Below are positions 213 through 15,042 of a DNA stretch of 15,042 nt, in pieces. The notes under the pieces are model-generated. The model did no database searches, had not been told where the DNA came from, and worked only from the letters and a program-made list of their open reading frames with translations. Numbering within the stretch: position 1 is the first letter of the stretch; each line of letters begins with the position of its first letter. This DNA is from an uncultured Candidatus Saccharibacteria bacterium (lineage in GTDB: Bacteria; Patescibacteriota; Saccharimonadia; Saccharimonadales; Saccharimonadaceae), in contig CAUQXD010000015.1 in NCBI GenBank assembly GCA_963521995.1, positions 1 through 15,042 on the forward strand, given 5' to 3'. Made by a program: the position numbers and the translations under genes.

Positions 213-233
213 ACCTCTTTCAAATTTCTAAGG

Positions 234-273
234 AAATGCCGGCGTCTTAAGGGAAAACGGCGCTGGCATTTTA
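234..273 (+). terminator. Rho-independent terminator of the upstream membrane protein gene
   Basis: AAATGCCGGCG (234-244) pairs with CGCTGGCATTT (261-271), giving an 11-bp stem with one G-U pair. The T run at 269-272 is short. Confidence 0.55.
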
Positions 274-291
274 GTTGGCGCAGGGTCATTT

Positions 292-320
292 TTGACAAAA
301 TACGGGCAGTTTGCTAAAAT
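292..320 (+). promoter_or_regulatory. Sigma70-type promoter for rnj (TTGACA-17 nt-TAAAAT with TGc extended -10)
   Basis: TTGACA lies at 292-297, followed by a 17-nt spacer that ends in TGC, then TAAAAT at 315-320. The predicted TSS is near 327, which leaves an ~83-nt leader before the SD-led ATG at 410. Confidence 0.6.
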
Positions 321-409
321 AAAGCTACTAACGAGAGGGATTTCTAGCGAGTAAAAGCACCTCTCTACCTGGTTTTTAGATTATTGTAATAAAAAAGGAG
401 TATAACAAT

Positions 410-2578
410 ATGGGTCAGCGGCGACTGGCAACACCGCAGAAGGACGATACTAAAAAGCGTCCACAATCGAAAAAAAGCAACAATGCAGTATTAAACAGCA
501 CTACCACTCGTAAGGGTGAAGTTTTTCGCGCGCAGCGACGAACAAGCGAGAACGTTAATCTCAGAGCGTCGCAGCACGTGATCGATATTCCGGTCAACAA
601 ATCAGTTTACAACGGCTATGGCGGCGAGCAATTTAGCGCCAAAATGCAGCCAAAACGTACTCGCGGCGGCAAGCCAAAACTACGAATCATCCCAATCGGT
701 GGTGTCGGCGAAATGGGCATCGGTAAAAATATGAACGCCATTGAGTATGACGATGAGATTATCGTTGTCGATATGGGCTTCCTGTTTCCAGGTAGTGATT
801 ATCCAGGCATCAACTACATTACGCCAGACATCACCTGGCTAGAAGAAAATAAGCACAAGATTAAGGCGCATGTGTTTACTCACGGACATCTGGATCACAT
901 AGGTTCTTTCCGGCACTTTATTCACCGAATTCCAGCGCCGGTCTACGCGTCGAAGTTTACTATCGGTATGCTGGATAAGTCGATGGCTGATGCCGATACT
1001 GATTTCCAGCCAGACTTTCGGGTGATGGATCCATTGAGCCATGAAATTGTTCAGGTATCGAAGCACTTTTCGGTGGAGTTGGTGCGGGTAAACCACTCGA
1101 TTCCTGACTCGACAGCGGTGATTATTCGGACACCATTGGGTGTGATAATTGACTCTGGTGACTGGCGATTTGAGGAAAGTCCGGTTGACGGTCAGAAGTT
1201 TGATCTCAAGCGGATGACCGAAGTGGCGTCCAAAGAAGGCGTGTTGATGTTCATGAACGAATCGACCAACTGTGAGTCGGCTGGTACGCACACGCACACT
1301 GAGTTTGATATTCAATATTCCATTGGTCAGGTGATGGATAAATTCAGTAACAGTCGAGTGATTTTGAGCTGTTTCTCATCGCAGGTGCACCGCTTGCAAT
1401 TGATTTTGGAAGAAGCACACAAGCACGGCCGCAAGGTGGCATTTGCCGGCTTTTCAATGATTCAGAACCTGGAAGTGGCGCTGCGTTCAGGAACTATCAA
1501 GATCCCGAAAGATACCGTCATGAAGATGGAGGATATCATCAAGCTGCCGGATAACCAAATCACCGTGGTCTGTACTGGTTCGCAGGGTGAATTTAATGCC
1601 GTGTTGAGCCGCATGGCGACTGGCGCGCATAAATACATGAAGATTAAAGGCTCTGACGTGGTGGTGTTTAGCTCTAACCCAATTCCGGGCAACGAGAAAA
1701 ACGTGGTGCGAACAGTTGATGGCTTGATGCGCGAAGGTTCTGATGTGATTCAGAACGGCAAGACACACTTGACGGGGATTGGACCGCTGCATTTGTCGGG
1801 TCATGGTTACTACGACGATCACGTTAAGTTGATTAACGCCCTGAACCCAACGTACTATATGCCAATTCACGGCGAATTTCACATGTTGGTTTACAATGCT
1901 CGGCTGGCAGAAAAAGAGTGCGGGATTCCGCGGAAGAATATCTTTGTGTGCGACGCCGGCGATATTATTGAAATTGATATTGAGCGGCAAGCTAAGAAAG
2001 CCGGTCGGATTCAGGCTGGCGGCGTGATGTATGATGATACGGGCGCTATCGTTTCTGAGGTGGTATTGAAAGACCGCATTCATATGTCTCAAGAGGGAAT
2101 GTTTGTAGTAGTCCTGACGGTGCAGCGCGGTACAGGACGGCTGTTGACTAGCCCGGATATCATTTCCCGCGGTTTCATATATCTACGCGATTCCGAGGAA
2201 TTGATGAATATGATTCGCCAGTACTTGAAGCAGAAGGCAGCACGCAGTTTTGTTGGCAAGTACGACCTTGATGTGGTAAAGAAAGAAATTAAGGATGAAA
2301 TTACCCATATATTATATGACCAGACCAGGCGGACGCCGATCGTTATTCCGGTAATTAACGAGGTTGGCGGTTTGAAAACGGTAAAATCGACTGCTGCTTC
2401 GAATACTTCTATCGCAAAGACACCGGTGCGCAGCAAAAAATCTGCCGCCGCTTCAGCGGAAGAGCCAAAAATGACTCTGTCAACTATGCCGCGCCGCCGT
2501 TTCCCGCGCCGCCAGGTGCCAGACACCGAGGCGAATGATACGAAGGCCCGGGAACGACATGACGTGCGTCCGTACTAG
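410..2578 (+). CDS. rnj: Ribonuclease J (metallo-beta-lactamase/beta-CASP RNase) with N- and C-terminal basic low-complexity extensions
   Basis: 722-aa ORF with SD AAGGAG (395-400) 9 nt before the ATG. It carries the HxHxDH motif (HVFTHGHLDHIG). The core from about aa 90 (LRIIPIGGVGEMGIGKNMNAIEYDDEIIVVDMG...) is collinear with the start of Bacillus RNase J1. The ~560-aa core length fits the MBL + beta-CASP + C-terminal domain layout. Confidence 0.9.
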   Translation: MGQRRLATPQKDDTKKRPQSKKSNNAVLNSTTTRKGEVFRAQRRTSENVNLRASQHVIDIPVNKSVYNGYGGEQFSAKMQPKRTRGGKPKLRIIPIGGVGEMGIGKNMNAIEYDDEIIVVDMGFLFPGSDYPGINYITPDITWLEENKHKIKAHVFTHGHLDHIGSFRHFIHRIPAPVYASKFTIGMLDKSMADADTDFQPDFRVMDPLSHEIVQVSKHFSVELVRVNHSIPDSTAVIIRTPLGVIIDSGDWRFEESPVDGQKFDLKRMTEVASKEGVLMFMNESTNCESAGTHTHTEFDIQYSIGQVMDKFSNSRVILSCFSSQVHRLQLILEEAHKHGRKVAFAGFSMIQNLEVALRSGTIKIPKDTVMKMEDIIKLPDNQITVVCTGSQGEFNAVLSRMATGAHKYMKIKGSDVVVFSSNPIPGNEKNVVRTVDGLMREGSDVIQNGKTHLTGIGPLHLSGHGYYDDHVKLINALNPTYYMPIHGEFHMLVYNARLAEKECGIPRKNIFVCDAGDIIEIDIERQAKKAGRIQAGGVMYDDTGAIVSEVVLKDRIHMSQEGMFVVVLTVQRGTGRLLTSPDIISRGFIYLRDSEELMNMIRQYLKQKAARSFVGKYDLDVVKKEIKDEITHILYDQTRRTPIVIPVINEVGGLKTVKSTAASNTSIAKTPVRSKKSAAASAEEPKMTLSTMPRRRFPRRQVPDTEANDTKARERHDVRPY

Positions 2579-2579
2579 A

Positions 2580-2608
2580 TTGATTTTATGAACAAATCAT
2601 GTTATAAT
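2580..2608 (+). promoter_or_regulatory. Distal promoter upstream of ftsK (TTGATT-17 nt-TATAAT with TGt extended -10)
   Basis: TTGATT lies at 2580-2585, starting 2 nt after the rnj stop. A 17-nt spacer ends in TGT, followed by TATAAT at 2603-2608. The predicted TSS is near 2615. Confidence 0.5.
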
Positions 2609-2622
2609 ATGGAGGTGTAGCA

Positions 2623-2657
2623 GGTTAACGTTTCTATCTGTTAAGAAGCGTTAAACC
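2623..2657 (+). promoter_or_regulatory. Hairpin in the rnj-ftsK intergenic/leader region
   Basis: GGTTAACG (2623-2630) pairs with CGTTAAACC (2649-2657), an 8-bp stem with one bulged A and an 18-nt loop. No U-tract follows, so it is not a canonical terminator. Confidence 0.35.
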
Positions 2658-2661
2658 AGTG

Positions 2662-2667
2662 TATAAT
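2662..2667 (+). promoter_or_regulatory. Proximal -10 box (TATAAT) 10 nt upstream of the ftsK ATG
   Basis: TATAAT at 2662-2667 is followed by agaaac and then AGTTATG. There is no Shine-Dalgarno. The -35 is weak (TGTTAA/TTAAGA around 2639-2646). Confidence 0.4.
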
Positions 2668-2677
2668 AGAAACAGTT

Positions 2678-4891
2678 ATGGCAAAAAAACGAAAGAGTTC
2701 AAAAAAATCTACACCTGTTAAGCCGCAGCACAGTTTGCCAGCGGGCTTTTGGTCGCAAGTTGGGGCGGTACTGCTAATATTACTATCGTTGTTATTGGTG
2801 GTATCATGGTTTGGCGTTGGTGGTCCGGTCCTTCGGTGGATTGATATGGCGGCCACTAAGACAATTGGCTACACCGCTTATGCTTTACCGGTATTATTGA
2901 TTTATTTGGCGGTTGAGACTTTTCGGGCGGAGGATAACCAGTTGCCGGTGGTGGTGAAATTTGCGGCGGTTTTAGAGATTGTCTGGTTTTCCGGGTTGTT
3001 TGGGTTGCTAAAGACATCTTTGAGACCAGATGCTGGCGGATTTGTTGGTGACATATTGAATACAGCTACGTTGAAGATGGTGGATTCGGCAATTGCTGCA
3101 ATATTTTACCTAGTTATGGCGTTTATTACAGTGCTATTTATTACTCAGACGTCGCCGTTTACGGTATTTAGTAAGTTATGGCAAATGATTAAAAGCGATA
3201 GATCAGAAGACGACAAAAATCGTTCTATCATGAAGCAGGCGGCAAAATCCCAATCAACGGATGAAGATAAAAAGGTGAGTTTGGGGGATATTAAGCTCAA
3301 TGCTGGTGTGCCAATTATTAATACAAATAAAGAGAAAAAGAGTTTATTAAAGCGAGCAGAAAAGCCAGAGAAAGTCAGTGAAGAACAGGCCTTGGTGGCA
3401 ACTCGTGATCCGAATTGGCAAGCACCAAGCTTAGACCTGTTAGAGAAGAATGAAGGTGGTGCGGATGCTGGTGATACGAGGCAAAATGCGCAGATTATTC
3501 ACGATACGCTGTCGGAATTTAACATTGATGCAGCAATGGGCGATATAAACGTTGGGCCGAAGGTAACTCAGTACACCCTAAGACCACCAAGTGGTGTGAA
3601 ATTGACGCGAATTACAGCTCTGGAGACAAATATTGCGCTTAATTTGGCAGCACAAAGCTTGAGGATTGAAGCGCCGATTCCTGGCCAAAAAGCAGTGGGA
3701 ATTGAGGTGCCAAACCGTAAGGCGGCTGAGGTGCGTCTTTATAGTACTTTGGTTTCAAAGCAGTGGACGACGTCGCGCGATCCGCTGAGTTTTACTATTG
3801 GTAAGGATATTTCTGGGCAAGTCGTGGTTGGTGAACTGGGAAAGATGCCGCACTTGTTGATCGCTGGACAGACCGGTTCTGGTAAGTCGGTGATGATCAA
3901 TACGCTGCTGTCTAGTTTGCTTTACCGTAATAGTCCGAGCGACATGAAACTGATTTTGGTTGACCCGAAGCAGGTGGAAATGGCACCGTATGAGGATATT
4001 CCGCATTTGCTTACCCCTGTTATTACCGAGCCAGAAAAGACGATTTCGGCGCTGAAGTGGGCGGTTAACGAAATGGAGCGGCGATATAAATTATTGGCGG
4101 CAGAGAAAATTCGCAATATTCGAGATTATAATAAAAAGTTGCAGTCGCGCGCTAAAAAGATTGCTATCGCTGATGAAAACGGCAATGTCCAGCAGCATGA
4201 GGACGGTTCGATGCCGTACATAGTGATCGTGGTGGACGAAATGGCGGATTTGATGATGATTGCCAAACGCGATGTTGAAGCGCTAATTGTTCGCTTGGCG
4301 CAGAAGGCCCGTGCGGTTGGTATTCATCTGGTGCTGGCGACGCAACGCCCGAGTGTTGATGTGATCACTGGTTTGATTAAAGCGAATGTGCCAGCGCGTA
4401 TTTCGTTTACGGTCGCTAGCCAGGTGGACAGTATGACGATTTTAGACCAAGCGGGCGCCGAAAAGCTGCTGGGCCAGGGCGATATGCTATTCTATACGCC
4501 AAGCATGAGCAAGCCGAAGCGCATCCAGGGCGCGTGGGTAACCGACGATGAAGTGAATAAAATAACTGATCATTTGCGAATGCAGATGGCGCCGCAATAT
4601 AACGATGAGGTGGTGGCGCAGCCGGTACAATTGAACGGCAAGGGCGGCGTGGTGATGGATTTCTCTGAGGGTGGCGATGATAAATTTAAGGATGCGGTAC
4701 GCGTGGTGGTTGAGCGGCGTAAGGCTTCGACAAGTATGCTACAGACTCGGCTAGGTATTGGCTACCAGCGGGCGGCGCGGATTATTGAAGAGATGGAGGA
4801 GCGGGGTATTATTGGTGCAGCGAATGGTTCAAAGCCGCGCGATGTGTTAATCTCTAGTGTCGAAGAATTAGATGAACTGTTGGCGGAATAG
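2678..4891 (+). CDS. ftsK: DNA translocase FtsK/SpoIIIE
   Basis: 737 aa. The N-terminus has several hydrophobic helices, followed by a charged linker. The motor has Walker A GQTGSGKS, Walker B YIVIVVDEMADL and the LATQRPS motif. The C-terminus has a gamma winged-helix domain (STSMLQTRLGIGYQRAARIIEEMEERGIIG). Confidence 0.93.
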   Translation: MAKKRKSSKKSTPVKPQHSLPAGFWSQVGAVLLILLSLLLVVSWFGVGGPVLRWIDMAATKTIGYTAYALPVLLIYLAVETFRAEDNQLPVVVKFAAVLEIVWFSGLFGLLKTSLRPDAGGFVGDILNTATLKMVDSAIAAIFYLVMAFITVLFITQTSPFTVFSKLWQMIKSDRSEDDKNRSIMKQAAKSQSTDEDKKVSLGDIKLNAGVPIINTNKEKKSLLKRAEKPEKVSEEQALVATRDPNWQAPSLDLLEKNEGGADAGDTRQNAQIIHDTLSEFNIDAAMGDINVGPKVTQYTLRPPSGVKLTRITALETNIALNLAAQSLRIEAPIPGQKAVGIEVPNRKAAEVRLYSTLVSKQWTTSRDPLSFTIGKDISGQVVVGELGKMPHLLIAGQTGSGKSVMINTLLSSLLYRNSPSDMKLILVDPKQVEMAPYEDIPHLLTPVITEPEKTISALKWAVNEMERRYKLLAAEKIRNIRDYNKKLQSRAKKIAIADENGNVQQHEDGSMPYIVIVVDEMADLMMIAKRDVEALIVRLAQKARAVGIHLVLATQRPSVDVITGLIKANVPARISFTVASQVDSMTILDQAGAEKLLGQGDMLFYTPSMSKPKRIQGAWVTDDEVNKITDHLRMQMAPQYNDEVVAQPVQLNGKGGVVMDFSEGGDDKFKDAVRVVVERRKASTSMLQTRLGIGYQRAARIIEEMEERGIIGAANGSKPRDVLISSVEELDELLAE

Positions 4892-4900
4892 TATAAAAGA

Positions 4901-4929
4901 TTGACCAAATAATATCTATATTGTAAAAA
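4901..4929 (+). promoter_or_regulatory. Possible promoter of the 210-aa ORF (TTGACC-17 nt-TAAAAA)
   Basis: TTGACC at 4901-4906 is followed by a 17-nt spacer and TAAAAA at 4924-4929. The ATG at 4935 has no SD. The -10 lacks the conserved final T, so this call is weak. Confidence 0.3.
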
Positions 4930-4934
4930 ACTTT

Positions 4935-5567
4935 ATGAATGAGCATTTTCCCGGAAGTTATGACTTAGCTCCTGACCAAGATACTCTTGTCACTATAGTA
5001 CAAGCAGCAGGTAAAGTTCTTAAAGAGAAGGGTATTGAAGGGCTAGAGAATGGTCGCTATAAAATAGACGATAGTAGTGCTGCTGCGAACATTTTTACAT
5101 GTAAACTATCGCCAGAAATAGTATATCATATTTTTTCAATTCCACTAGAAACCATTCGCGTTTCTTCGGACGGTCATGCGGAGGGGTGCGAAATAATCTA
5201 TTTACCAGAATCTATGTTGGAAGATGGTAAACAATGTTCCGCTGAATTAGGTTTGTACGTTACTGAGGCGGTAGGTCGTTCAGGTGGCTTACCGCCACTT
5301 CATATAGAGCACAGCTGGATTATTAGAGGTTGGAAGGATCAATGTCTTGAGGGAGAGTATAAGGTCGAATATTCCATAGATGGACGAAGAGTAAGTCTGA
5401 GTAATCTTGATCTAGAAAGTTTGGATTTGAGAAACCCTGAAGATATCAGAAGATTAATCGCCGACATAAGAAACAGTACTAAATCTCTCGGTGTTGACGA
5501 TATAGATACTATCTACAGGCTAATTGACACGATATCGCAGAGTGGGTATAATATAAGCAAATATTAA
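4935..5567 (+). CDS. Hypothetical acidic cytoplasmic protein, 210 aa, no family recognised
   Basis: A long ORF fills the whole ftsK-rpsF gap on the same strand as its neighbours. It has no TM segment or signal peptide, is D/E-rich, and has no motif I can assign. Confidence 0.55.
   Translation: MNEHFPGSYDLAPDQDTLVTIVQAAGKVLKEKGIEGLENGRYKIDDSSAAANIFTCKLSPEIVYHIFSIPLETIRVSSDGHAEGCEIIYLPESMLEDGKQCSAELGLYVTEAVGRSGGLPPLHIEHSWIIRGWKDQCLEGEYKVEYSIDGRRVSLSNLDLESLDLRNPEDIRRLIADIRNSTKSLGVDDIDTIYRLIDTISQSGYNISKY
5524..5552 (+). promoter_or_regulatory. Perfect-consensus sigma70 promoter for the rpsF-ssb-rpsR operon, embedded in the 3' end of the 210-aa ORF
   Basis: TTGACA (5524-5529), an exactly 17-nt spacer (cgatatcgcagagtggg), then TATAAT (5547-5552). 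The predicted TSS is near 5559-5560, giving a ~64-nt leader. Confidence 0.65.
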
Positions 5568-5623
5568 CCTAAGCTTATGTGAGACAGCGTAAGCATCCGT
5601 AAATGGATTCCAAAGGAGGAAAC

Positions 5624-5977
5624 ATGAACGAATATGAGCTAACCGTTCTTATTCACCCGGATTTAGAGTCTACTTTAGATTCGGCGTTGGATAAGGTTCG
5701 CGGTTTAATCACCACCAACGGCGGTGAAATCACCAAAGAAGATAATTGGGGCAAGAAAAAATTGGCCTACACCATCAAACGTGAAGATTTTGCTATTTAC
5801 GTTTGTTTTGAGGTAAAGCTGCCAGCGCCAGCTTTATTGAAGATTTCCAATACGCTTAACATTACTGACGAAGTACTACGCTACCTGTTGGTAAAAACTG
5901 ATGAAAAAACTCGCCAGGCATTAAGCGAGCAAAAAGCACGCAACGAAGAAGCTGATTCAAGCGAATCAAATAAATAA
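5624..5977 (+). CDS. rpsF: 30S ribosomal protein S6
   Basis: MNEYELTVLIHPDLES matches the canonical S6 N-terminus (M-x-x-YE-hydrophobic...HP). SD AAGGAGG (5613-5619) lies inside the longer ORF-track call. The ATG at 5603 has no SD, so I place the start at 5624. Confidence 0.9.
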   Translation: MNEYELTVLIHPDLESTLDSALDKVRGLITTNGGEITKEDNWGKKKLAYTIKREDFAIYVCFEVKLPAPALLKISNTLNITDEVLRYLLVKTDEKTRQALSEQKARNEEADSSESNK

Positions 5978-6012
5978 GCCTAACTGCCGCAAGGTAAAAG
6001 AGGGGATAGAAT

Positions 6013-6435
6013 ATGGCACGAAGCATCAATCAAGTAATTTTACTGGGTAGATTGACACGCGATCCAGAGCAGCGAACAACAGCTTCTGGCAAAAACGTAG
6101 TCAGTTTTAGTATCGCGGTTGATCGACCAACTCAGGATGATCAGGCAGACTTTTTCAATATTACCGCCTGGGAAAAACTTGGTGATTTGGTGATGCAATA
6201 TTTGAGTAAAGGTCGTCGGGTTTTAGTGCAGGGACGACTACGGCAAGACAGTTGGGAAGATAAGGAAACTGGCAAAAGACAGAGTCGAATTGAAGTTACC
6301 GCTTCAGACGTAACATTCTTGGACGGTCCAAGTGGCGATAATTCAGGCTCTGCAGCACCAAAGACTACTAAAAAAGAGGAAGTTGTGACGGAAATTGACG
6401 ATAAGCCAATTGACCTGAGCGAAATCCCATTCTAA
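6013..6435 (+). CDS. ssb: Single-stranded DNA-binding protein
   Basis: OB-fold N-terminus ([19 protein letters not shown]...), a flexible Gly/Ser-rich linker and the C-terminal acidic tip DLSEIPF. It sits in the conserved rpsF-ssb-rpsR position, with SD AGAGGGG upstream. Confidence 0.92.
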
Positions 6436-6448
6436 TAAGGAGATAATA

Positions 6449-6646
6449 ATGGCACAAGTGAAGAAAAATCCACCAATTATTTTTGACTATAAAGACGTAA
6501 AGACTTTACAGCGCTATATCAATGTTTATGGTCAAATCGAGCCGATCAGCAAGACTGGCTTAAGTGAAAAGCAACAGCGAAGTTTGGCGGTAGCAATTAA
6601 GCGAGCTCGCCATTTGGCGCTATTGCCATTTGTGGCTAGCAACTAG
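6449..6646 (+). CDS. rpsR: 30S ribosomal protein S18
   Basis: 65 aa with [13 protein letters not shown]...[21 protein letters not shown], the typical S18 signature. SD AAGGAG lies 7 nt upstream. Confidence 0.92.
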
Positions 6647-6660
6647 GAATATTAAACAGG

Positions 6661-6703
6661 ATATCTCGTTGCTATTACATATTTGGCAGCGAGATATTTT
6701 ATT
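6661..6703 (+). terminator. Rho-independent terminator after rpsR
   Basis: ATATCTCGTTGC (6661-6672) pairs with GCAGCGAGATAT (6686-6697), a 12-bp stem with one G-U and a 13-nt loop, followed by TTTATT. Confidence 0.75.
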
Positions 6704-6717
6704 GGAAGGGAATATGT

Positions 6718-7278
6718 ATGTATCAACCAACTGATTTGAAAAAAGGAGTAGTTTGTCAGATTGACGGTAAGCCGTATCGAGTCGTGGAGTACGGACAGAA
6801 GGTCATGGGTCGTGGCGGCTCAATCGTTAACGTTAAGCTGAAGAATTTGATTGACGGTAGTGTTATTCCAAAGACGTTTAAGGGTCAAGAGCGTATCGAG
6901 GCTGCGGAAGTAAACAATAAGACTGCGCAATATTTGTATAACGACGGCAATAAATTTTACTTTATGGATCCGGTTAGCTTTGAGCAGTTTGAATTGGCGG
7001 CGGAAATCGTGGACGATGCCAGCAAATATTTGAAGGAAGGTGACGAGTTAAGTCTGCAATTCTTTGACGGTCGAGTAATTAATGTCGAATTGCCAAAGAA
7101 CAAATATTTGGAAGTTACTTATACCGAGGACGTAGTGAAGGGCGATACGACCTCATCAGTATTAAAGGATGCTACATTGGAAACTGGTTTGGTGGTAAAA
7201 GTTCCAGCGTTCATTAAGCAGGGCGATATTATTAGTGTCGACACATCAACGGGCGAGTATCGCGAGCGAAAGAAGTAG
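6718..7278 (+). CDS. efp: Translation elongation factor P
   Basis: 186 aa, collinear with E. coli EF-P over its full length (e.g. YLYNDGNKFYFMD vs YLYNDGEFWHFMN; VVKVPAFIKQGDIISVDTSTGEY vs [23 protein letters not shown]). Confidence 0.92.
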   Translation: MYQPTDLKKGVVCQIDGKPYRVVEYGQKVMGRGGSIVNVKLKNLIDGSVIPKTFKGQERIEAAEVNNKTAQYLYNDGNKFYFMDPVSFEQFELAAEIVDDASKYLKEGDELSLQFFDGRVINVELPKNKYLEVTYTEDVVKGDTTSSVLKDATLETGLVVKVPAFIKQGDIISVDTSTGEYRERKK

Positions 7279-7290
7279 TAATTTTTTTAA

Positions 7291-8013
7291 ATGAAACAGC
7301 GATTAGATAAGGCTCTAGTCGAGCGTGGGCTGGCGTCAACACGTTCTCAGGCGGATAATTTTATTCGCTTGGGTTACGTTTATTTGAATAAAAAAGTTGC
7401 TCAAAAATCAGGGGCAATGGTATCTGATACTGATACGATAACGCTAAAAAAGACAGAGACTTATGTGTCGCGGGCTGGCTTAAAGCTGGCTAGTGTAGCC
7501 AAATATTTTAAGCTTAATTTTCAAGATAAAATAGTACTAGATATTGGTTCAAGCACCGGTGGTTTTACTGACTATTCGTTGCGTCATGGCGCTAAGAAAG
7601 TTTTCGCTGTTGATGTCGGTACCGACCAACTTCATCCAAGCTTACGCTCTAACCCAAAGATTATCCTCAACGAAAAAACCGACATTCGTAATTTTTACAC
7701 AGATGAAGTGATTGATGTGATTGTAGGAGATGTGTCGTTTATATCACTACGGGAAATTTTACCACATGTAGCTAGCGAACTGATGAATGAAAGTACCACA
7801 CTCATTGCTATGGTTAAGCCGCAATTTGAGGCAGGGCGACATCAAACTAATAAAGGCATTATTAAAAACGATAAGGTGCGACGGCAGATCTTAACTGATT
7901 TTGAAAATTGGGCAAAAAAATATTTTGTTATTTTAGACAAAAAGGATAGCGAAGTTGCTGGAAGTAAGGGAAATCTTGAGCGATTTTATAAATTGCAATT
8001 AGCTAAACGTTAA
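7291..8013 (+). CDS. tlyA: TlyA-family rRNA 2'-O-methyltransferase (S4 domain + FtsJ-like methyltransferase)
   Basis: N-terminal S4-like RLDKALVERGLASTRSQADNFIRLGYVYLN; YVSRAGLKL; and the SAM-binding motif LDIGSSTGGFTDYSLRHGAKKVFAVDVG. Confidence 0.85.
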   Translation: MKQRLDKALVERGLASTRSQADNFIRLGYVYLNKKVAQKSGAMVSDTDTITLKKTETYVSRAGLKLASVAKYFKLNFQDKIVLDIGSSTGGFTDYSLRHGAKKVFAVDVGTDQLHPSLRSNPKIILNEKTDIRNFYTDEVIDVIVGDVSFISLREILPHVASELMNESTTLIAMVKPQFEAGRHQTNKGIIKNDKVRRQILTDFENWAKKYFVILDKKDSEVAGSKGNLERFYKLQLAKR

Positions 8014-9082
8014 ACCTAAATTCAACAACATCATTTGGTTGCATGACGTACGTTTTGCCTTCAGTGCGAATCTTACCAGCCTCGCGAGCTTTTACTTCTG
8101 ATCCGGCAGTAATCAAATCATTAAAATCAACAATTTGTGCAGCAATAAAGCCTCGTTCAAAGTCTGAATGGATAACTCCAGCGGCTTGTGGCGCCGTCCA
8201 GCCTTTATGGATTGTCCAAGCGCGCACTTCTTTTTCGCCGGCAGTCAAGTAGCTTTGTAGTCCTAATGTATCGTAAGCGGCGTGAATTAGTTTGACTAAT
8301 CCGGTTTCCTGAACTCCATAGCTTTCCAGGAGTTCTTTGGCATCATCTTCTGACAAGCCCTTCAACTCTTCCTCTAATTTTGCACAGATGAAGACAGTTT
8401 TTGCCGGATGTACCAGTTCTTTTAATTTTCCTTGCAGAGAGGAATCGCTTAGTCCTTCTTCGTCAACATTGAAAGCATAAATAACTGGCTTGGCAGTGAG
8501 TAGATGTAGATCAGCAATTGCTTCAAAGTCTACGTCGGTCAGGGCAGAAATTGGCGTCCCTGACTGTAAATTATCTGCTAGTGATTGTAAGTAAGATACT
8601 TTTTGGCGGGCTTCTGGACTAGCCTTAGCCTCTTTTTGTAGCTGTGGCAGACGTTTCTCGATTGTTTGTAGGTCGGCTAGAATTAATTCGGTATTGATAA
8701 TATCGATATCTTTTTTAGGGTCAATTGGCGCTTCGTCGTGTCGCAAAATCTTTGAATTTTCAAAAGCACGAACAACGTGAATAATGGCGTTACACTCTCT
8801 GATATTGTGAAGAAACTTATTACCTAGACCTTCGCCTGTGGAAGCGCCAGCAACTAGTCCTGCAATATCAACAAAAGTAACGGTGGCTGGGATGATTTTT
8901 GGGGCGTGATAAAGCTCGGCCAGGGCTTTTAGGCGGTTATCTGGTACAGGAACAATTCCCGTATTTGGCTCGATGGTCGCAAATGGATAATTAGCGGCTA
9001 AAATATCGTTATTAGTTAAGGCATTAAAAAGTGTCGATTTGCCGACGTTTGGCAAGCCGACGATTCCAATAGATAAACTCAT
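8003..9082 (-). CDS. ychF: Ribosome-binding ATPase YchF (Obg-family P-loop NTPase)
   Basis: N-terminal [19 protein letters not shown]-loop, [10 protein letters not shown], and a C-terminal TGS-like [31 protein letters not shown]. The length of 359 aa is typical. Confidence 0.93.
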
Positions 9083-9088
9083 ACATTC

Positions 9089-9097
9089 ATTATATCA
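9089..9097 (-). promoter_or_regulatory. Extended -10 promoter (TGATATAAT) for ychF, 6 nt from its ATG
   Basis: The minus strand reads TGATATAAT-gaatgt-ATG, with the start codon at 9080-9082. There is no SD. Confidence 0.55.
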
Positions 9098-9110
9098 TCT
9101 ACGTAATATT

Positions 9111-9119
9111 TGATATAAT
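9111..9119 (+). promoter_or_regulatory. Extended -10 promoter (TGATATAAT) for the 982-aa ORF, 7 nt from its ATG
   Basis: The plus strand reads TGATATAAT-cataagc-ATG (ATG at 9127). There is no SD. Confidence 0.55.
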
Positions 9120-9126
9120 CATAAGC

Positions 9127-12075
9127 ATGAGCAGAAAATACTCATTGCCTCGGATGGGCATGCTGGCAATGGTAGTGGCCTTAGCTGTTTCAATAACGGC
9201 GTTTTTTATCTATACGTATGCATCCCCAAGCACTACAACTTGGACTATGACTGGGCGATCTTGGGTTACCAAACAGTTTAATCCGTCGGATACGAACAGC
9301 TATGGGTCTGGTTGGAAATCATCGCCTGAGCGCTTAAAAAATCTCAAACCTGGTGATACTGTTGACTGGTGGCACAGCATATTTGTTAGCGGCGGGACGA
9401 CGGAACATGTCATAACTGGTGTGCAGCAGGATGTGTTTGATCTTAGTTCAAATCAGCCAATTGATGGCGATAACAGCCTTAATAACAGGGGTGCTTGGCA
9501 TAATGAAGATTCGCGACAATATGGAAATATTTCTGATTGGAAGGGATATGCTTGGAAGCGGATGAATAACCCGGCGGATTATAAGAATACTACAATGGAG
9601 GCTCTGAACGGCAAATCGCGTCTCGAGGACCTTCATGGTGAACTAGGTAAAAATAAGTTTATGTACACGCGGGTTATTCGAAAAGAAGATATGGGCAAGC
9701 GGATTTGTCAGCGTATTTATTGGAGTAAGCGTGGCTCTGGCTCGACGGCGGGCTGGGGATATTCACCTTATTCTTGTGTTGAAGTACCATACGATTATGA
9801 CATCGAGCCGTCCGTTAGCGTTGCTTCTGATCATATTGATACGGATAATGTTACAAGCCTTGATGGTATTAATGCGGCTTTAAACAATAAGGGGTCAGTA
9901 AAATCACAGAGTTCAGCCTATGCAATTACTCGATTTATTGCTAGGGGTACGGAAGTATCAAGTATTGGTGGGGTCAATACAGTTTCGCTGCCGGGTGGTA
10001 CGGTTCACGATTGGTCGTGTGCGGTTGTGCGACTAATAAAAGGACAACATCCAGACCTAAATGTTGATAGCGGAACATGTAAGGAAATCATTGGAAATGG
10101 CGGCAAGAACCAGATTAATCCCGGACAGACGGCAATTGCTACAAATGCGACAGACTCCCTGAGTGGGTCAACTCTGAACGCTAATGATAGCCTGTGTTAT
10201 GTGGCAATGGTCAGTGATTATAATGGCTCAGCGCCTTCGACAGACTTTAGGTACGCGATTAGATGTATTAGGACGTCAAAAAAGCCAAAAGTCCAAGTTT
10301 GGGGTGGTGATATTAAAACTGACAAAGAAGTGATCACTAGCAACACGTCTAACACTCTGCTTGGACCAGATAATCAAAGTATTATTGATAAGTCGACGCT
10401 ACAATCAATGGGCTTTTGGGGTACGGGTGTGGATAATAACGGTAATACTCTTGGGGAAAAACCAACGTTTGGGCCGAGTGAATATACTTATAAGGGCGGA
10501 GATAAAGTTGATCCGCACTGGTCAGTAATTTGCTCTCAAGACTCTTATGGCGGCAGTGGTAACCAGCGGGCTTATAGCAAGGCTACAAATAGCCCGGCTG
10601 ATTTACCAAATTGTCGAGATAATGCTATAAATTTAACGGCTGAATATCAGGCCAGAACAGTAGTAACAACTCAATGGTATCAATCTGGCGTGGGTAATCG
10701 TCAGCAGGATGGTTGGATTCCGTGTTCTGATATACCGAACAAGGATTTAATTGGTGATACGCGGATCATTACACACAATCCTGATTGTCGTAGAGGTACT
10801 TGGAGAACTTCAAATAAAGCTAAGTGGATTAGTATTAATAGTTTTGGGCGTCATACACATTCTGCATCAAAGCCCGATTCAAGCGTTGCAGCTGGCTGTT
10901 TGGGCGCTACAGGAACTGCCGTTTTGAATTGTGGAAATACCTATGTATTTAGGTTGAAAAATGTTAAATTGGGCGATTTGAAGAATGCTAAAAATCTAAG
11001 GTTTAACTTCTCAGGTTCAGCGGATAATTTTATTCGAGTAAAAATTAATGGACACGAAATGGACGTTAAGGGAAATGAAAATGGCGCCAGACCTGATGGT
11101 ACGCAATACTCAGGATGGGGACTTCCAGGATTTAGTGAGAATTCGGCATTTACGGCTGACATCAAGCCAGGCACTGTTTTGTATAGCGATGGAAATATTA
11201 TTGATATTTATATCAAGTCTAGTCCGTCGCACATGGGGTTGATAATTGAAAATATTACGTTATCCTACACGATGGATCGTGCCTATCAAAAAATACACGG
11301 ATCTTGGGCTGAGTATGGAATTATTGCTGGCGGTAAGGCGGAGTCGGCTTCCGGGGCAGGTTTGTCATCATCTTTCAATGGTCGTGAAAATGTGACAGTA
11401 CGTGATTATAATAAGTTGACGTTTGCCAATACACCAAAGTTTGGTAATTTTAGTAGCTCCAGTCTCGTTCCTGACAATTTTACACTACCATCTGTCGGGG
11501 GTATAAAAGGAAATGTTTCAGGGGTTGTCGCTACCAACAATTTGGTGACGGGCGAATATGCCGCCGGAAATATCACTTTAGCCGGATCAAGGCTCGACGC
11601 AGGAAAGAGTATTGTCATCAAATCTACTGGTACGGTCAGGATTTCGGGCGATTTGTTGTATAGTGATCCAGGTAATGCGCGGACACTACCACAACTAATT
11701 ATCTATGCTAAAAATATTATTATTGACCCTTCGGTTGGTGAGGTTAATGCTTGGTTAATTACTCCTAAAGACGGTTATGTTAGCACCTGTGGGGCTGTGT
11801 TAAATATGACACATTGGTTGAGTGGGGTCTCCGAGGCTTCATGTGGCAAGCAACTACGGATTAATGGACCAATTAAAGCCGGTCATCTATTTTTGCGACG
11901 TACATATGGTGGTAAACATGCGTCATCAGCCAAAAATGACCCAAATATGCATCCAGGGACTCCAGCAGAAATCATTAACTTGCGGGCAGATGCCTACATT
12001 TGGGCATATAACAATTATCGGAATACGGGCGCAATTAGCACAATGAACTTACGCGAATTGCCACCAAGATATTAA
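9127..12075 (+). CDS. Large secreted/surface protein, 982 aa, multi-domain with paired cysteines; function unknown (candidate adhesin)
   Basis: N-terminus: basic residues (RK..R), then the hydrophobic core MGMLAMVVALAVSITAFFIY and TYA/SP, which reads as a Sec signal peptide or signal anchor. The remainder is N/G/S/T-rich and has 14 Cys in seven consecutive close pairs. There is no LPXTG, lipobox or prepilin motif. The long ORF is free of internal stops and has a plausible promoter. Confidence 0.8.
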   Translation: MSRKYSLPRMGMLAMVVALAVSITAFFIYTYASPSTTTWTMTGRSWVTKQFNPSDTNSYGSGWKSSPERLKNLKPGDTVDWWHSIFVSGGTTEHVITGVQQDVFDLSSNQPIDGDNSLNNRGAWHNEDSRQYGNISDWKGYAWKRMNNPADYKNTTMEALNGKSRLEDLHGELGKNKFMYTRVIRKEDMGKRICQRIYWSKRGSGSTAGWGYSPYSCVEVPYDYDIEPSVSVASDHIDTDNVTSLDGINAALNNKGSVKSQSSAYAITRFIARGTEVSSIGGVNTVSLPGGTVHDWSCAVVRLIKGQHPDLNVDSGTCKEIIGNGGKNQINPGQTAIATNATDSLSGSTLNANDSLCYVAMVSDYNGSAPSTDFRYAIRCIRTSKKPKVQVWGGDIKTDKEVITSNTSNTLLGPDNQSIIDKSTLQSMGFWGTGVDNNGNTLGEKPTFGPSEYTYKGGDKVDPHWSVICSQDSYGGSGNQRAYSKATNSPADLPNCRDNAINLTAEYQARTVVTTQWYQSGVGNRQQDGWIPCSDIPNKDLIGDTRIITHNPDCRRGTWRTSNKAKWISINSFGRHTHSASKPDSSVAAGCLGATGTAVLNCGNTYVFRLKNVKLGDLKNAKNLRFNFSGSADNFIRVKINGHEMDVKGNENGARPDGTQYSGWGLPGFSENSAFTADIKPGTVLYSDGNIIDIYIKSSPSHMGLIIENITLSYTMDRAYQKIHGSWAEYGIIAGGKAESASGAGLSSSFNGRENVTVRDYNKLTFANTPKFGNFSSSSLVPDNFTLPSVGGIKGNVSGVVATNNLVTGEYAAGNITLAGSRLDAGKSIVIKSTGTVRISGDLLYSDPGNARTLPQLIIYAKNIIIDPSVGEVNAWLITPKDGYVSTCGAVLNMTHWLSGVSEASCGKQLRINGPIKAGHLFLRRTYGGKHASSAKNDPNMHPGTPAEIINLRADAYIWAYNNYRNTGAISTMNLRELPPRY

Positions 12076-12079
12076 AAGT

Positions 12080-12108
12080 TTGCAAATTAAAACGCTAATG
12101 TATATAAT
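12080..12108 (+). promoter_or_regulatory. Sigma70-type promoter of the pilus operon (TTGCAA-17 nt-TATAAT)
   Basis: TTGCAA at 12080-12085, a 17-nt spacer, then TATAAT at 12103-12108. The pilM ATG at 12120 has no SD. Confidence 0.6.
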
Positions 12109-12119
12109 TGGTACTAGTT

Positions 12120-13166
12120 ATGAAATTAATAAAAGGGTTGGGCGACTTCTTCGGACTGGACATCGGCACAAACGCGGTGCGGGTGGTTCAGTTGTCTCGT
12201 ACTGGTGCGGGTTGGAGTCTGGTCCATTATGGCTATACGCCAGTTGATTCTAAAATAACAAGTGGCGATTCGCCAGAGGCGCGACGACGTTTGGGCGAAG
12301 CAATTATGACAGCAGTTGGTCAAGCTGGAATTAGGACCTCTAATGTGGCTATTGGCCTACCGTCAAATAAAACATTTTCAACCGTAATTGACGTTCCGAA
12401 GGTTTCTGAACAAGAACTAAAGGCAATGATGAAATATCAGGTCGACCAGTACATTCCAATGTCTTCGGATGAGGCGGAGGTAGACTGGGTGCTGTTAGGC
12501 GAGAGCTTACATGCCCAGAACCAATATGAGGTTTTGCTGACCAGTACGTCAAAAACATACGCAGAGGAAAGGCTGGAGCTGGTCGAGGGGCTTGGTTTCA
12601 ATGTTATCGCTGAGGAACCAGATGCTATTGCAATGGTGCGCTCTTTATCTGTTACTGATTCACAGGATGCTCGCTTAATTATTGATATGGGCGAGAATTC
12701 GACAGATTTGGCAGTAGTTTACAACGGTGCGCCAAGGCTAATTCGTATGATTCCAACGGGACTATCTTCGTTAGTGCGAGCAGCAGTCCAAAATCTTAAT
12801 GTCCAAGAAGATCAAGCGCGTCAATTTATCCTGAAATTTGGTCTAGCGCCGGATAGGTTGGATGGACAGGTGTTAAGAGCAATCGATTCGACGCTTGATA
12901 GTTTCTCATCAGAGTTAATCAAATCGATTAAGTTTTTCCAGACTAGATATCCAAACACTGCCGTCTCTGGAATTTTACTGTCAGGCTTTGGCTCAGTTAT
13001 TCCGCAGCTTGATAGTTATGTTATGAATAAAGCTGGCATTCAGTCAATTGTTGCCGATCCGTGGCAGCGAGTTCAGGTTTCTCAGTCTGATCAGCAACAG
13101 TTGGCGCCGATTGCCTCAGAGTTTGCTATTGCTGTCGGCTTGGCGCAAAGGAGCAATGCATCATGA
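12120..13166 (+). CDS. pilM: Type IV pilus assembly protein PilM (actin-like ATPase fold)
   Basis: N-terminal FFGLDIGTNAVRVVQL (actin/FtsA-like phosphate-1 motif), internal LIIDMGENSTDLAVV, and a ~350-aa length. It is directly followed by pilN with an ATGA overlap. I prefer ATG 12120 to the ORF-track TTG 12108, because that TTG sits inside the -10 box. Confidence 0.85.
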   Translation: MKLIKGLGDFFGLDIGTNAVRVVQLSRTGAGWSLVHYGYTPVDSKITSGDSPEARRRLGEAIMTAVGQAGIRTSNVAIGLPSNKTFSTVIDVPKVSEQELKAMMKYQVDQYIPMSSDEAEVDWVLLGESLHAQNQYEVLLTSTSKTYAEERLELVEGLGFNVIAEEPDAIAMVRSLSVTDSQDARLIIDMGENSTDLAVVYNGAPRLIRMIPTGLSSLVRAAVQNLNVQEDQARQFILKFGLAPDRLDGQVLRAIDSTLDSFSSELIKSIKFFQTRYPNTAVSGILLSGFGSVIPQLDSYVMNKAGIQSIVADPWQRVQVSQSDQQQLAPIASEFAIAVGLAQRSNAS

Positions 13167-13909
13167 TTGAAATTAATCTTATACCGAACGTCAAGCGAGA
13201 GCTACTAAAAACTCGTGCGATGCGTAATCGTGTTATTTCAATGTCGTTTTTGATAGGAGGCGCTTCTATTGCCGCAGTAGTTGCTTTGGCGGTGATTTTG
13301 GGCGGTCAACTTGCAGCTGAGGTGGTACAAAATAGCGGCATTAAAGATCGAAGCGATAAACTTATGGCGGTAGAAGATCTCAATAAGGTGGTGACTATTC
13401 AAAATCAATTGTCAAAAATTAACGCCCAACACTCTGGTAAGAAAATTAATTCGCGGATTTTTGATGTAGTATCTGCGGTTAATCCACCAGCACCAAACAA
13501 TGTTAGCTTTTCAAGCATTAAGGTTAATCCTGAATTGAAGACAATTACTCTGGAGGGTAGTGCTGCTAACGGCTACGGTGCGTTGGAGACCTTAAAAAAG
13601 ACTATTTTAAGCACTAAAGTTCGGACAACCGATGGAGCTAACACTTCAGAGGTAGAACTGACTAAGGATATAAAAGATGGTGACACTAGCTTTGGTGAAA
13701 ATTCGGAGGGTAAAAAAGTATTGCAGTTTTCTTTCTCGTTTGAATATAATGAAGCGCTGCTGGCGCCTGCAAACAATGGCATAGTTTCAGTTATAACACC
13801 AACGACTAAAATTGATATGACCGACTCACGCCAAGGAATTCCAGATAGTTTATTTAAGAGTAAAACTGATAATTCGGCAAAACGGGAGAATGGTAATGCC
13901 AACCGATAA
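13163..13909 (+). CDS. pilN: Type IV pilus assembly protein PilN (bitopic)
   Basis: The N-terminal MIEINLIPNVKRE matches the conserved PilN INLLP motif that binds PilM. A single TM follows (SMSFLIGGASIAAVVALAVILGG), then a periplasm-facing domain. SD AAAGGAG lies upstream and the start overlaps the pilM stop. Confidence 0.8.
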   Translation: MIEINLIPNVKRELLKTRAMRNRVISMSFLIGGASIAAVVALAVILGGQLAAEVVQNSGIKDRSDKLMAVEDLNKVVTIQNQLSKINAQHSGKKINSRIFDVVSAVNPPAPNNVSFSSIKVNPELKTITLEGSAANGYGALETLKKTILSTKVRTTDGANTSEVELTKDIKDGDTSFGENSEGKKVLQFSFSFEYNEALLAPANNGIVSVITPTTKIDMTDSRQGIPDSLFKSKTDNSAKRENGNANR

Positions 13910-14564
13910 TAAAGAAGTTGCAATTCGCAAACGTCAGCAAATTGATTCGTCAAAAAAGACAATGTTTGTTTTTGTGGCGAGCGCGGCGTTTTTAGCGGGG
14001 ATTGCGCTAGTTGTCAGTATTTTCTTGATTCAACAGATTATCTTTCACTCAAAGATTATTATTGAAAAGCAAAGTACGATTTCGCGACTGGATAAGAATC
14101 TAACGACAATTGACGAGTTAAAGAAGAATATCCGAGTTCTAGACACAAATACAGCACTTAATTCTGTCAAGGCAAGTAATGAAAGTAGTGCACTACAGGC
14201 GATTTTAGATGCATTGCCAGATAATCCTAACGCTGATGCTTTTGGCGCTTCACTTAAGAACAAGTTTATTGATACAACCACTGGTTTGACGATTCAGAAT
14301 TTGTCGGTGACGCAAGTCGCATCTGATAGTGATAGTTCTGGATCAACTTCAGCGAATACGGTGTCGTTTATCATGGAAGTGAGCGGGCCAGCTGATAAAT
14401 TGAAAGAGCTATTGACAAAACTTGAAGCTTCGATTCGCGTAATTGACTTAAAAACAGTAGAAATTCAGCGTAGTGAAGATAAATTGAGTTTGGTTGTTCG
14501 GGGTGTTGCTTACTATGAACCAGCACAAACAGTACAATTAGAAAATAAGGTGGTAAAGCCGTGA
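13896..14564 (+). CDS. pilO: Type IV pilus assembly protein PilO-like (bitopic)
   Basis: Short cytoplasmic N-terminus, one TM (MFVFVASAAFLAGIALVVSIFLI), a coiled-coil-like stretch, then the PilO-style C-terminal pattern VSFIMEVSGPADKLKELLTKLEASIRVIDLKTVEI...LSLVVRGVAYY. It sits directly after pilN. The start is 13896, with GGGAGA 8 nt upstream; 13890 is the alternative. Confidence 0.65.
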   Translation: MPTDNKEVAIRKRQQIDSSKKTMFVFVASAAFLAGIALVVSIFLIQQIIFHSKIIIEKQSTISRLDKNLTTIDELKKNIRVLDTNTALNSVKASNESSALQAILDALPDNPNADAFGASLKNKFIDTTTGLTIQNLSVTQVASDSDSSGSTSANTVSFIMEVSGPADKLKELLTKLEASIRVIDLKTVEIQRSEDKLSLVVRGVAYYEPAQTVQLENKVVKP

Positions 14565-14791
14565 AAAAAACAGATATAGCAATGGTGGTATTAATTGCTG
14601 GTGTGGGTGTGGCAATTGGTTATCTTGTCGCCTCCAACATCTCCTTTTTAAAGGTCCCAGAGCGTGGTATGAAAGTACAAACTATTCGGGAGATATCATC
14701 TGACGTTGAAAAGCCAAATCCAGCGATTTTCAATAGTAATGCGATAAATCCAACTGTTGAGGTGCTTGTGGGTCAAGATGCGGCCAAGTAG
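14561..14791 (+). CDS. Small bitopic membrane protein (76 aa) of the pilus operon, unassigned
   Basis: The GTG start overlaps the pilO stop (GTGA). A strong SD, AAGGTGG (14547-14553), lies 7 nt upstream. One N-terminal TM (IAMVVLIAGVGVAIGYLVA) is followed by a ~45-aa polar tail. Confidence 0.6.
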   Translation: MKKTDIAMVVLIAGVGVAIGYLVASNISFLKVPERGMKVQTIREISSDVEKPNPAIFNSNAINPTVEVLVGQDAAK

Positions 14792-14805
14792 AGAAAGGAC
14801 GTAGC

Positions 14806-15042
14806 ATGGCTTTACTGACGGATGATATCCAAGATAAGTTGATTAAACTGCTTATAAATGAAGGACTTATCGAAAAGTCGGTTATTGATGATGCCTTAAA
14901 GCGTGCTACTGAAAATAATAAGCCGCTATTTAGCTTGTTGAGTGACGAAGGCTTGCTTGATAACGAGTTGCTGGTTCATGGCGTAGCGCAGGTTTCGGGT
15001 GTGCCATACGTTAATTTATCGAATAGTGTTATCACTCAGGAT
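14806..15042 (+). CDS. pilB: Type IV pilus assembly ATPase PilB/GspE family, N-terminal part (3' end outside the window)
   Basis: The frame is open from ATG 14806 (SD GAAAGGA upstream) to the window edge. MALLTDDIQDKLIKLLINEGLIEKSVIDDALKRATENNKPLFSLLSDEGLLDNELLVHGVAQVSGVPYVNL matches the T2SSE_N/MshEN-type N-terminal domain pattern. The ATPase core is not visible. Confidence 0.7.
   Translation, partial: MALLTDDIQDKLIKLLINEGLIEKSVIDDALKRATENNKPLFSLLSDEGLLDNELLVHGVAQVSGVPYVNLSNSVITQD

Follow-up and report, generated by a model that had tools for sequence, protein, structure and literature searches.

What is the protein encoded directly in front of the type IV pilus assembly genes of an epibiotic saccharibacterium, and could it take part in attachment to the host? 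The question is raised by a stretch of 15,042 nucleotides (nt) from an uncultured Candidatus Saccharibacteria bacterium (contig CAUQXD010000015.1 of assembly GCA_963521995.1, positions 1 to 15,042; hereafter the window), in which a gene for a protein of 982 amino acids (aa) lies immediately upstream of pilM. Saccharibacteria are ultrasmall epibionts that live attached to host bacteria and are naturally transformable. To our knowledge, host recognition and attachment by epibionts of the candidate phyla radiation are largely unexplained. In the two principal genetic studies on the pili of Saccharibacteria, the essential pilus-1 locus starts at pilM and the gene in front of it was left out of consideration. 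The original prediction, made from the letters of the window alone, described this gene as an orphan and proposed a pilus-associated or host-binding adhesin. We treat a pilus-linked host-binding adhesin as a reasonable hypothesis and not as a finding. The analysis showed that the slot before pilM is occupied by a large, unnamed, fast-evolving family that combines a constant module, apparently of a docking type, with exchangeable heads, as would be expected of a receptor-binding protein or a determinant of host range.

The 982-aa open reading frame (ORF) is a real gene.

9127..12075 including the stop codon, plus strand: coding sequence of the 982-aa exported modular surface protein, from the ORF list and its translation.

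It runs unbroken from ATG to TAA over 982 codons and is the longest in the window, in agreement with the original prediction. The locus is that of a Candidatus Nanosynbacter (Saccharibacteria/TM7) of the oral type, and the nearest named homologue of the protein is annotated as hypothetical, in Candidatus Nanosynbacter sp. TM7-074. The transformable strain TM7-008 (L024) has the gene as well. The protein is not the orphan it was taken for. A word-indexed search returned 304 matches, the top 120 of which are full length with identities of 67-100%, and an exhaustive HMMER search at E ≤ 1e-3 returned the representatives of 1,501 clusters formed at 50% identity, of which 388 had E ≤ 1e-30. All the related loci from GTDB species representatives (76 of 76) belong to Saccharibacteria. 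The earlier statement that the protein can be assigned to no known family stands, as scans of the 982-aa protein against Pfam, NCBIfam, PHROGs and PADLOC gave no match and a Pfam scan of 53 diverse family members gave none above threshold. Searches of the PDB sequences by phmmer and by profiles (built from the insert described below and from a family alignment of 145 sequences with the C-terminal module at its head) gave nothing meaningful, and a profile search with distant members gave back the query alone. By these searches, the protein belongs to a large unnamed and unannotated family, so far found in Saccharibacteria only. No mention of the gene was found in the papers on Saccharibacteria pili, in the supplements to these papers or in the other full texts searched. 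No orthologue was identified in TM7x: the label TM7x_00410 is absent from the full texts and two supplements, and a search with the C-terminal module gave short fragments only.

The protein is built of modules that differ in conservation, with two conserved blocks in the family alignments (aa ~181-404 and aa ~721-982). The segment boundaries drawn in the original prediction (35-225, 226-385, 386-615, 616-715 and 716-982) agree well with the parse obtained from conservation and the structural model.

9127..9222, plus strand: Sec-type N-terminal signal, aa 1-32, with a basic n-region, a hydrophobic segment of 20-24 residues and the junction TYA/SPS; predicted local distance difference test score (pLDDT) <50.
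9223..9666, plus strand: variable N-terminal beta-sandwich, aa 33-180, whose loop at 115-176 is disordered; from the model and from low occupancy and identity in the family.
9667..10281, plus strand: conserved beta-sandwich region, aa 181-385, DUF11/CARDB-like, with Cys pairs 194/217, 298/318 and 357/380; pLDDT 80-93.
10282..10338, plus strand: KPKVQVWGGD...TS segment, aa 386-404, with 94% identity among orthologues.
10339..11286, plus strand: inserted head module, aa 405-720, consisting of a disulfide-rich sub-domain with Cys pairs 469/496, 533/554 and 591/602 and a jelly-roll-like sandwich at ~aa 600-720.
11287..12072, plus strand: constant C-terminal module, aa 721-982, beta-solenoid-like with a flanking helix, which defines the family.
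12055..12072, plus strand: ELPPRY-COOH terminal motif, in a low-confidence tail (pLDDT <50 for aa 970-982).

Comparisons of closely related loci showed that the part upstream of the constant module is replaced as a unit. In a comparison of locus L066 with locus L016 (strain TM7-087), nothing is alignable between two breakpoints, located 30 bp ahead of the start codon and at codon ~726, and the DNA on either side is 95-96% identical. The same two breakpoints were found between L073 and L016. The flanks of L066, L073 and L081 are ~95% identical to those of L016, with homology resuming at codons ~726-731, and the heads of these three loci and of the type shared by the window and L016 are mutually unalignable, giving at least four types. 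The L066 allele encodes 737 aa with its own signal peptide, is without the insert and has a C-terminal module of 80% identity. Where the upstream part has been replaced, the constant module keeps ~95% DNA identity. The first ~725 codons thus act as a cassette that is exchanged between genomes with at least 95% identity elsewhere. In three family members (P0125, P0135 and P0139), an unrelated module of ~430 aa with beta-propeller-like repeats and no Pfam match is located at the same insertion site.

The gene also evolves faster than its neighbours. Among Nanosynbacter orthologues, the identity to the window copy is 67-71% for the 982-aa protein, ~90% for PilM, ~91% for YchF and ~99% for EF-P. 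Within the protein, it ranges from 51% in the first half of the insert (aa 405-600) and 66% in the sandwich at 226-385 to 81% in the C-terminal module and 94% in the KVQVWGGD segment. The ratio of nonsynonymous to synonymous substitution rates (dN/dS), calculated by the Nei-Gojobori method from 16 loci in 120 non-independent pairs, is 0.16 for the 982-aa gene versus 0.026 for pilM and 0.021 for ychF, a difference of ~6-fold. By region, it is 0.19 in the N-domain, 0.16 and 0.13 in the two halves of the insert and 0.084 in the C-terminal module. The estimated value of 0.16 shows that the gene is under purifying selection. The synonymous rate (dS) is 0.7-0.8 in the N-domain (0.71) and the insert versus ~0.3 elsewhere, an inflation better explained by imported or ancient alleles than by simple relaxed constraint. 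Receptor-binding proteins such as PilY1/PilC and phage tail fibres, in which one fixed end is docked on a conserved partner, likewise combine a constant module with exchangeable distal parts. The cassette-like replacement of the N-terminal ~725 codons together with the elevated dN/dS lends the adhesin idea indirect support.

Many alleles are preceded by an ORF of 155-163 aa that overlaps the start of the large gene, travels with the head cassette and encodes an N-terminal transmembrane helix followed by a helical ectodomain.

L081 4523-5008, L079 4529-5014, L082 3562-4029, L085 793-1284 and L066 ~4620-5140: ORF of 155-163 aa, no Pfam match.

The idea that the 161-aa form of this ORF, found before the gene in some loci, is a pilin was considered and rejected. 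The window-type allele is without this ORF, yet its hydrophobic N-terminus is unusually long; ORF and N-terminus may be alternative means of membrane anchoring. In the cultivated strain Candidatus Minimicrobia vallesae IHU2 (L068, NZ_CP076459.1, ~6001-8968), the locus is 92% identical to that of TM7-087 over its whole length, but the frame of the large gene is broken and leaves only a terminal ORF of 217 aa, representing either a pseudogene or frameshift errors of the assembly.

The termini of the protein are consistent with export and with none of the common attachment signals, as the original prediction had read them. The N-terminus has a basic n-region followed by a hydrophobic segment, and the body has an extracellular-type composition (36% G+S+N+T) with 14 Cys. 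The assignment of the signal peptide is rule-based only; the same build was found in 125 of 150 family representatives, with AxA-type sites in most of those inspected by eye. The N-terminus of the window protein could be either a cleaved signal peptide or a signal anchor. The first Cys is residue 194, so there is no lipobox of a bacterial lipoprotein. Instead of an LPXTG motif with a hydrophobic segment and a basic tail, as in sortase substrates, the protein terminates in ...RELPPRY. A prepilin signal is likewise missing: MSRKYSLPRMG/MLAMVV is without Glu5, with no G/F-x-x-x-E and no N_methyl match, and the AlphaFold2 model shows no N-terminal pilin helix or lollipop. All of the 14 Cys are kept in the 120 orthologues with spacings of 11-27 residues, which suggests seven local disulfides. 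DsbA-like genes are present in one related genome.

The AlphaFold2 model of the full-length protein, built with 53 sequences, is all-beta with a mean pLDDT of 79, exceeding 90 over much of 420-720 and 790-930. Its predicted template modelling score (pTM) is only 0.47, and the relative arrangement of the domains is therefore unreliable. Foldseek searches with the whole model found strings of Ig-like ectodomains (integrin legs, complement MG domains, RbmA and a Bacteroides surface glycan-binding protein); the alignments to PDB and BFVD entries are generic multi-sandwich ones with a template modelling (TM) score of ~0.1 and are uninformative on single domains. Neither database gave a specific relative among tailspikes or receptor-binding proteins.

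In the conserved sandwich region, C194, C357 and C380 are near-invariant across the family. The 53 scanned members gave sub-threshold matches here to DUF11 (5 members, best E 0.0054), CARDB (3 members, best E 0.016) and DUF7507 (3 members). None of the DUF11 and CARDB matches is in the window protein or reaches the Pfam gathering threshold, and this likeness to DUF11/CARDB surface sandwich repeats, seen in 3-5 of 53 members, covers a small part of the protein. The following segment has the family consensus PKVQxWGGDV..TS and is followed within ~8 residues by YGSWxEYG in most members. Since it runs almost directly into the C-terminal module in these members, aa 386-404 are probably the first part of the solenoid. 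For the same reason, namely that PKVQxWGGDV..TS adjoins YGSWxEYG in most of the family, aa 405-720 of the window protein are, as judged from the alignments, an insertion into the C-terminal domain. The insert is found in only about half of the family members and is modelled mostly at pLDDT >90; its motifs GLWKTGVD, ARWIGxNxYG, GAVDNxVKFxVNG and SHTGLLI survive in members of ~25% identity. Its only matches are sub-threshold ones to BetaGal_ABD2 and CE2_N, which hint at a sandwich of the carbohydrate-binding type.

The constant C-terminal module is common to proteins of 256-1358 aa. Invariant residues are W727, E729, W876, C888, C906, G914, R925, E948 and R981, and the tail [RKT]ELPPR[FYL]-COOH is present in nearly all 150 representatives, with P980 and R981 invariant. 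When modelled alone, the module gave a pTM of 0.74 with a core pLDDT >90 and shows stacked short strands with a flanking helix. Its best fold match in the PDB is the beta-solenoid of Thermus thermophilus ComZ (6qvi; E 0.24, probability 0.96, TM 0.32/0.18). Several ice-binding proteins aligned over ~135-170 columns with a root-mean-square deviation of ~4.2-5.4 Å at E ≥ 0.9, and the right-handed beta-solenoid with a flanking alpha-helix of the ice-binding fold (IBP-1/DUF3494, FfIBP 4nu2) weakly resembles the modelled module. ComZ is linked to type IV pili (T4P): it is the tip pilin of the competence pilus, with an inserted triangular beta-helix that is ice-binding-protein-like and, according to the ComZ paper, closest to FfIBP. 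However, unlike ComZ, which binds DNA, the window protein has no pilin domain, no pilin signal and no sequence similarity to it. Unlike the ice-binding family, the 53 members have no match to Ice_binding PF11999 at E ≤ 10, and the family of the window protein is set apart by its cysteine pair, its invariant motifs and its ELPPRF tail. The resemblance to ComZ and the ice-binding proteins is thus a weak lead at the level of the modelled fold and not evidence of homology. The supplementary tables for Southlakia contain no annotation of ComZ, ice-binding or solenoid proteins.

The gene is linked to the pilus genes in nearly the whole of the sampled lineage. In the window, it is followed by the alignment-complex genes of the pilus.

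12120..13166, plus strand: pilM, 348 aa from the conserved ATG (PF11104, 3e-39; TIGR01175, 4e-49).
13163..13909, plus strand: PilN-like gene, whose position and length fit pilN1 of TM7x and Southlakia SEML1_0105/0106.
13890..14564, plus strand: PilO-like gene, whose position and length fit pilO1 of TM7x and Southlakia SEML1_0105/0106.

A Pfam scan of the PilN-like and PilO-like proteins of the window gave no match. The mechanical ORF list starts pilM at TTG 12108; the ATG at 12120 is the likelier start, because it is kept in all the aligned loci and gives the 348 aa annotated in relatives. Counted from this ATG, the distance to the 982-aa gene on the same strand is 44 bp, the value originally given. 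The published T4P locus one of TM7x opens at pilM1 (TM7x_00415), and pilMNO of the window is the start of this T4P locus one as in N. lyticus TM7x. In TM7-074, the order is pilM-N-O, a gene for a 76-aa protein, pilB, pilT, pilC, a pilin gene, pilD and further pilin genes, which places the minor pilins ~8-10 kb downstream of the 982-aa gene.

The synteny survey that had been called for bears the linkage out. In ~60 loci of GTDB species representatives with downstream sequence, the homologue ends 36-60 bp before pilM-pilN-pilO, and the slot is held even by homologues of 46%, 39% or 29% identity. The same slot before pilM-N-O (-pilB-pilT where the contig extends) was found in 7 of 7 individually checked distant representatives. 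At locus L078 (388-5300), pilM is preceded by a tandem pair of family genes (774 and 819 aa) with 52% identity over ~600 aa, reminiscent of the duplicated adhesin genes of the PilC1/PilC2 type in other piliated bacteria.

Each of the two genes has a conserved promoter-like element of its own, in line with the original reading, although both calls are consensus matches and not mapped transcription starts.

9111..9119, plus strand: extended -10-like element TGATATAAT, ending 7 nt before ATG 9127; consensus match.
12080..12108, plus strand: promoter-like TTGCAA-17-TATAAT in the 44-bp gap, ending 11 nt before the pilM ATG; 10/12 consensus positions.

The 44-bp spacer between ychF and the 982-aa gene is near-invariant in 8 Nanosynbacter loci (98% identical), and the element before pilM is retained in distant loci whose upstream protein is merely 29-48% identical. 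No terminator-like site was found between the 982-aa gene and pilM. The -10-like hexamers lie only 7 and 11 nt from the start codons and leave no space for a Shine-Dalgarno sequence, which suggests leaderless or near-leaderless mRNAs for both genes.

On the other side, the 982-aa gene is divergent from a housekeeping gene.

8003..9082, minus strand: ychF (TIGR00092, 2e-133), the upstream edge of the variable cassette.

Beyond ychF are tlyA, efp, ssb, rpsF, ftsK and the gene for RNase J. The genes tlyA (plus strand) and ychF (minus strand) are convergent, with 3' ends overlapping by 11 bp (8003-8013), as in TM7-074 and Southlakia. Between ftsK and rpsF is an ORF of 210 aa (4935-5567) with no Pfam match; its position is kept in TM7-074 (205 aa), and other loci have a shorter ORF (112 aa) or none. 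Downstream, all the loci seen encode a single-pass membrane protein of 76 aa (14561-14791 in the window) after the PilO-like gene and before pilB. In Southlakia, the corresponding gene SEML1_0107 was scored essential, and the TM7x counterpart, presumably TM7x_00430, was passed over in the published pil gene table; the protein is an unnamed and probably integral component of T4P-1. In one environmental lineage, a gene with a weak Sortase match in Pfam is located two genes upstream of the family member (L079 3665-4393, L080 633-1085), and the terminal ELPPRF is not a canonical sortase signal.

We tentatively favour, at a little below an even chance, a variable-head, Sec-exported and disulfide-bonded protein that acts together with T4P-1 in adhesion to, or recognition of, the host. 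The protein would be retained at the cell surface, where its head would bind a surface structure of the host bacterium, plausibly a cell-wall glycan, since host binding of TM7x is inhibited by rhamnose and depends on the host wall polysaccharide. The constant solenoid and tail would dock to a conserved partner, either the filament tip or minor pilins of T4P-1, in the manner of PilY1/PilC, or the envelope beside the machine. The protein would thereby help to set which hosts can be attached to, and recombination-driven exchange of heads would diversify the specificity. The Saccharibacteria pilus papers describe T4P-1 as essential and host binding as glycan-dependent, and propose 'additional close-proximity adhesins'.

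Among the known systems, PilY1/PilC of Pseudomonas, Neisseria and Myxococcus are the closest match in logic, with an apparently unrelated fold. Like the window protein, they have ~1,000 aa, are Sec-exported non-pilins and are encoded in a T4P cluster. PilY1/PilC are T4P tip adhesins with a conserved C-terminal domain, variable N-terminal parts and paralogues. However, neither the window protein nor the 53 members match a PilY1/PilC family in Pfam, the modelled constant part is a solenoid and not a beta-propeller, and the gene is located before pilMNO rather than among the minor pilins; the association with the pilus is a hypothesis in the present case. PilX1 and PilX2 of Nanosynbacter lyticus TM7x belong to the same group of organisms and the same pilus systems. 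Their lectin-like modules, of a jelly-roll or propeller type, have been proposed as binders of host glycans, and host binding is slowed by deletion of PilX2. Unlike the window protein, which has a Sec-type N-terminus and is encoded outside the published locus, they have a pilin fold that includes a hydrophobic N-terminal helix, and their genes are located with those of the pilins. The identification of the 982-aa protein with PilX1 was rejected, as PilX1 is a pilin encoded among the locus-one pilins and the locus opens with pilM1 (TM7x_00415). An S-layer protein was rejected by reasoning alone, from the 14 conserved cysteines and the wholesale replacement between strains.

Several observations weigh against a pilus-linked host-binding adhesin. 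The arguments for surface location, adhesion and pilus association are all indirect. The assignment of the insert as glycan-binding rests on sub-threshold matches, and the fold matches of the constant module are weak (E 0.24, TM ~0.3), with the solenoid of ComZ binding DNA and thus saying little on docking. PilY1-type adhesins are usually encoded with the minor pilins, whereas this gene adjoins pilMNO. A paralogue of 1,247 aa (L069 5428-9171) is located away from the pilus genes, directly after the arginine deiminase operon arcA-arcB-arcD-arcC. In Southlakia epibionticum ML1, in which most genes of the T4P-1 locus were classed as essential, the gap between ychF and pilM is 11 bp, with no gene between. 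Variable surface proteins can also be diversified by phage or immune pressure rather than by host choice. Finally, the neighbourhood ftsK-rpsF-ssb-rpsR-efp-tlyA-ychF is equally syntenic, so that the position may partly reflect genome-wide synteny and the linkage is weaker evidence of functional coupling. The linkage is real and old, and tight but not universal; alone, it is no proof of functional coupling. As a separate observation, the L069 paralogue has the same constant C-terminal module and is followed by two DsbA-like thioredoxin-fold genes flanking an ORF of 205 aa.

The first rival is a stand-alone variable surface protein with no physical or functional link to the pilus, either a close-contact adhesin or a coat component varied under antigenic or phage pressure, whose position would result from inherited synteny and tolerance of a hypervariable gene at an operon boundary. 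We consider this unlikely, yet it is the likeliest of the rivals. It is in keeping with the conservation of the whole ftsK...ychF neighbourhood to the same degree, with the conserved promoter-like element of pilM itself, with the paralogue located elsewhere, with the essential T4P-1 that Southlakia keeps without a gene at this site, and with the published T4P inventories of TM7x and Southlakia, which did without the gene. However, in every locus examined the gene is on the same strand as pilM with a gap of 32-60 bp and no terminator, the slot is kept across alleles of 29% identity and after tandem duplication, and the preservation of the constant module through the head swaps implies a conserved partner.

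A structural accessory of the T4P-1 machine is quite improbable. Such a protein might be an extracellular collar, guide or wall-spanning element held by PilN/PilO in an envelope without an outer membrane or secretin, with the variable parts as its exposed surface. The adjacency to the alignment-complex genes pilM-N-O and not to the pilins would fit, the constant C-terminal module and the invariant tail suggest a fixed protein partner, and the long hydrophobic N-terminus of the window type could serve as a membrane anchor. However, Southlakia has an essential T4P-1 locus without the gene there, so that T4P-1 can be built without the protein, which is thus no obligatory component of the machine. 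Moreover, two thirds of the sequence are replaced wholesale, with unrelated inserts and lengths from ~670 to ~1,360 aa, unlike a fixed part, and Pfam and NCBIfam scans gave no similarity to the PilP, PilQ and TsaP families.

Equally doubtful is a secreted enzyme with a catalytic beta-solenoid (a polysaccharide lyase or hydrolase, tailspike-like) that remodels host wall glycans and uses the sandwiches and the jelly-roll as carbohydrate-binding modules: beta-solenoids often carry such activities, as noted in the ComZ paper, the constant module has the invariant charged residues E729, E948, R925 and R953, and the insert weakly matches accessory domains of carbohydrate-active enzymes, but the homology to a characterised enzyme that would have spoken against the original prediction was looked for by PDB sequence, fold and profile searches and none was found, with no lyase or hydrolase match beyond chance (PL6 alginate lyase, E 3.5, probability 0.02), no match to Pfam, PDB profiles or PHROGs, no tailspike relation in the viral library, and non-enzymatic proteins (the ice-binding proteins and ComZ) as the best fold relatives.

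A host-recognition protein working with T4P-1 thus remains our preferred interpretation. In its widest and less probable form, which we put forward as a speculation, the family would be a new class of non-pilin, pilus-1-associated host-specificity determinants, in which the solenoid and the ELPPR[FYL] tail plug into the tip or the machine of T4P-1 and the ~725-codon cassette, sometimes together with a small membrane-protein gene, re-targets the epibiont to other glycans of host cell walls. If this were true, a single locus would be a main genetic switch for host range in epibiotic Saccharibacteria. Should the adhesin idea fail, the family would still be a widespread surface protein worth naming. 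If it is right, the gene in front of pilM would provide a handle on host specificity, on strain competition in the oral microbiome and on the cultivation of new epibiont-host pairs.

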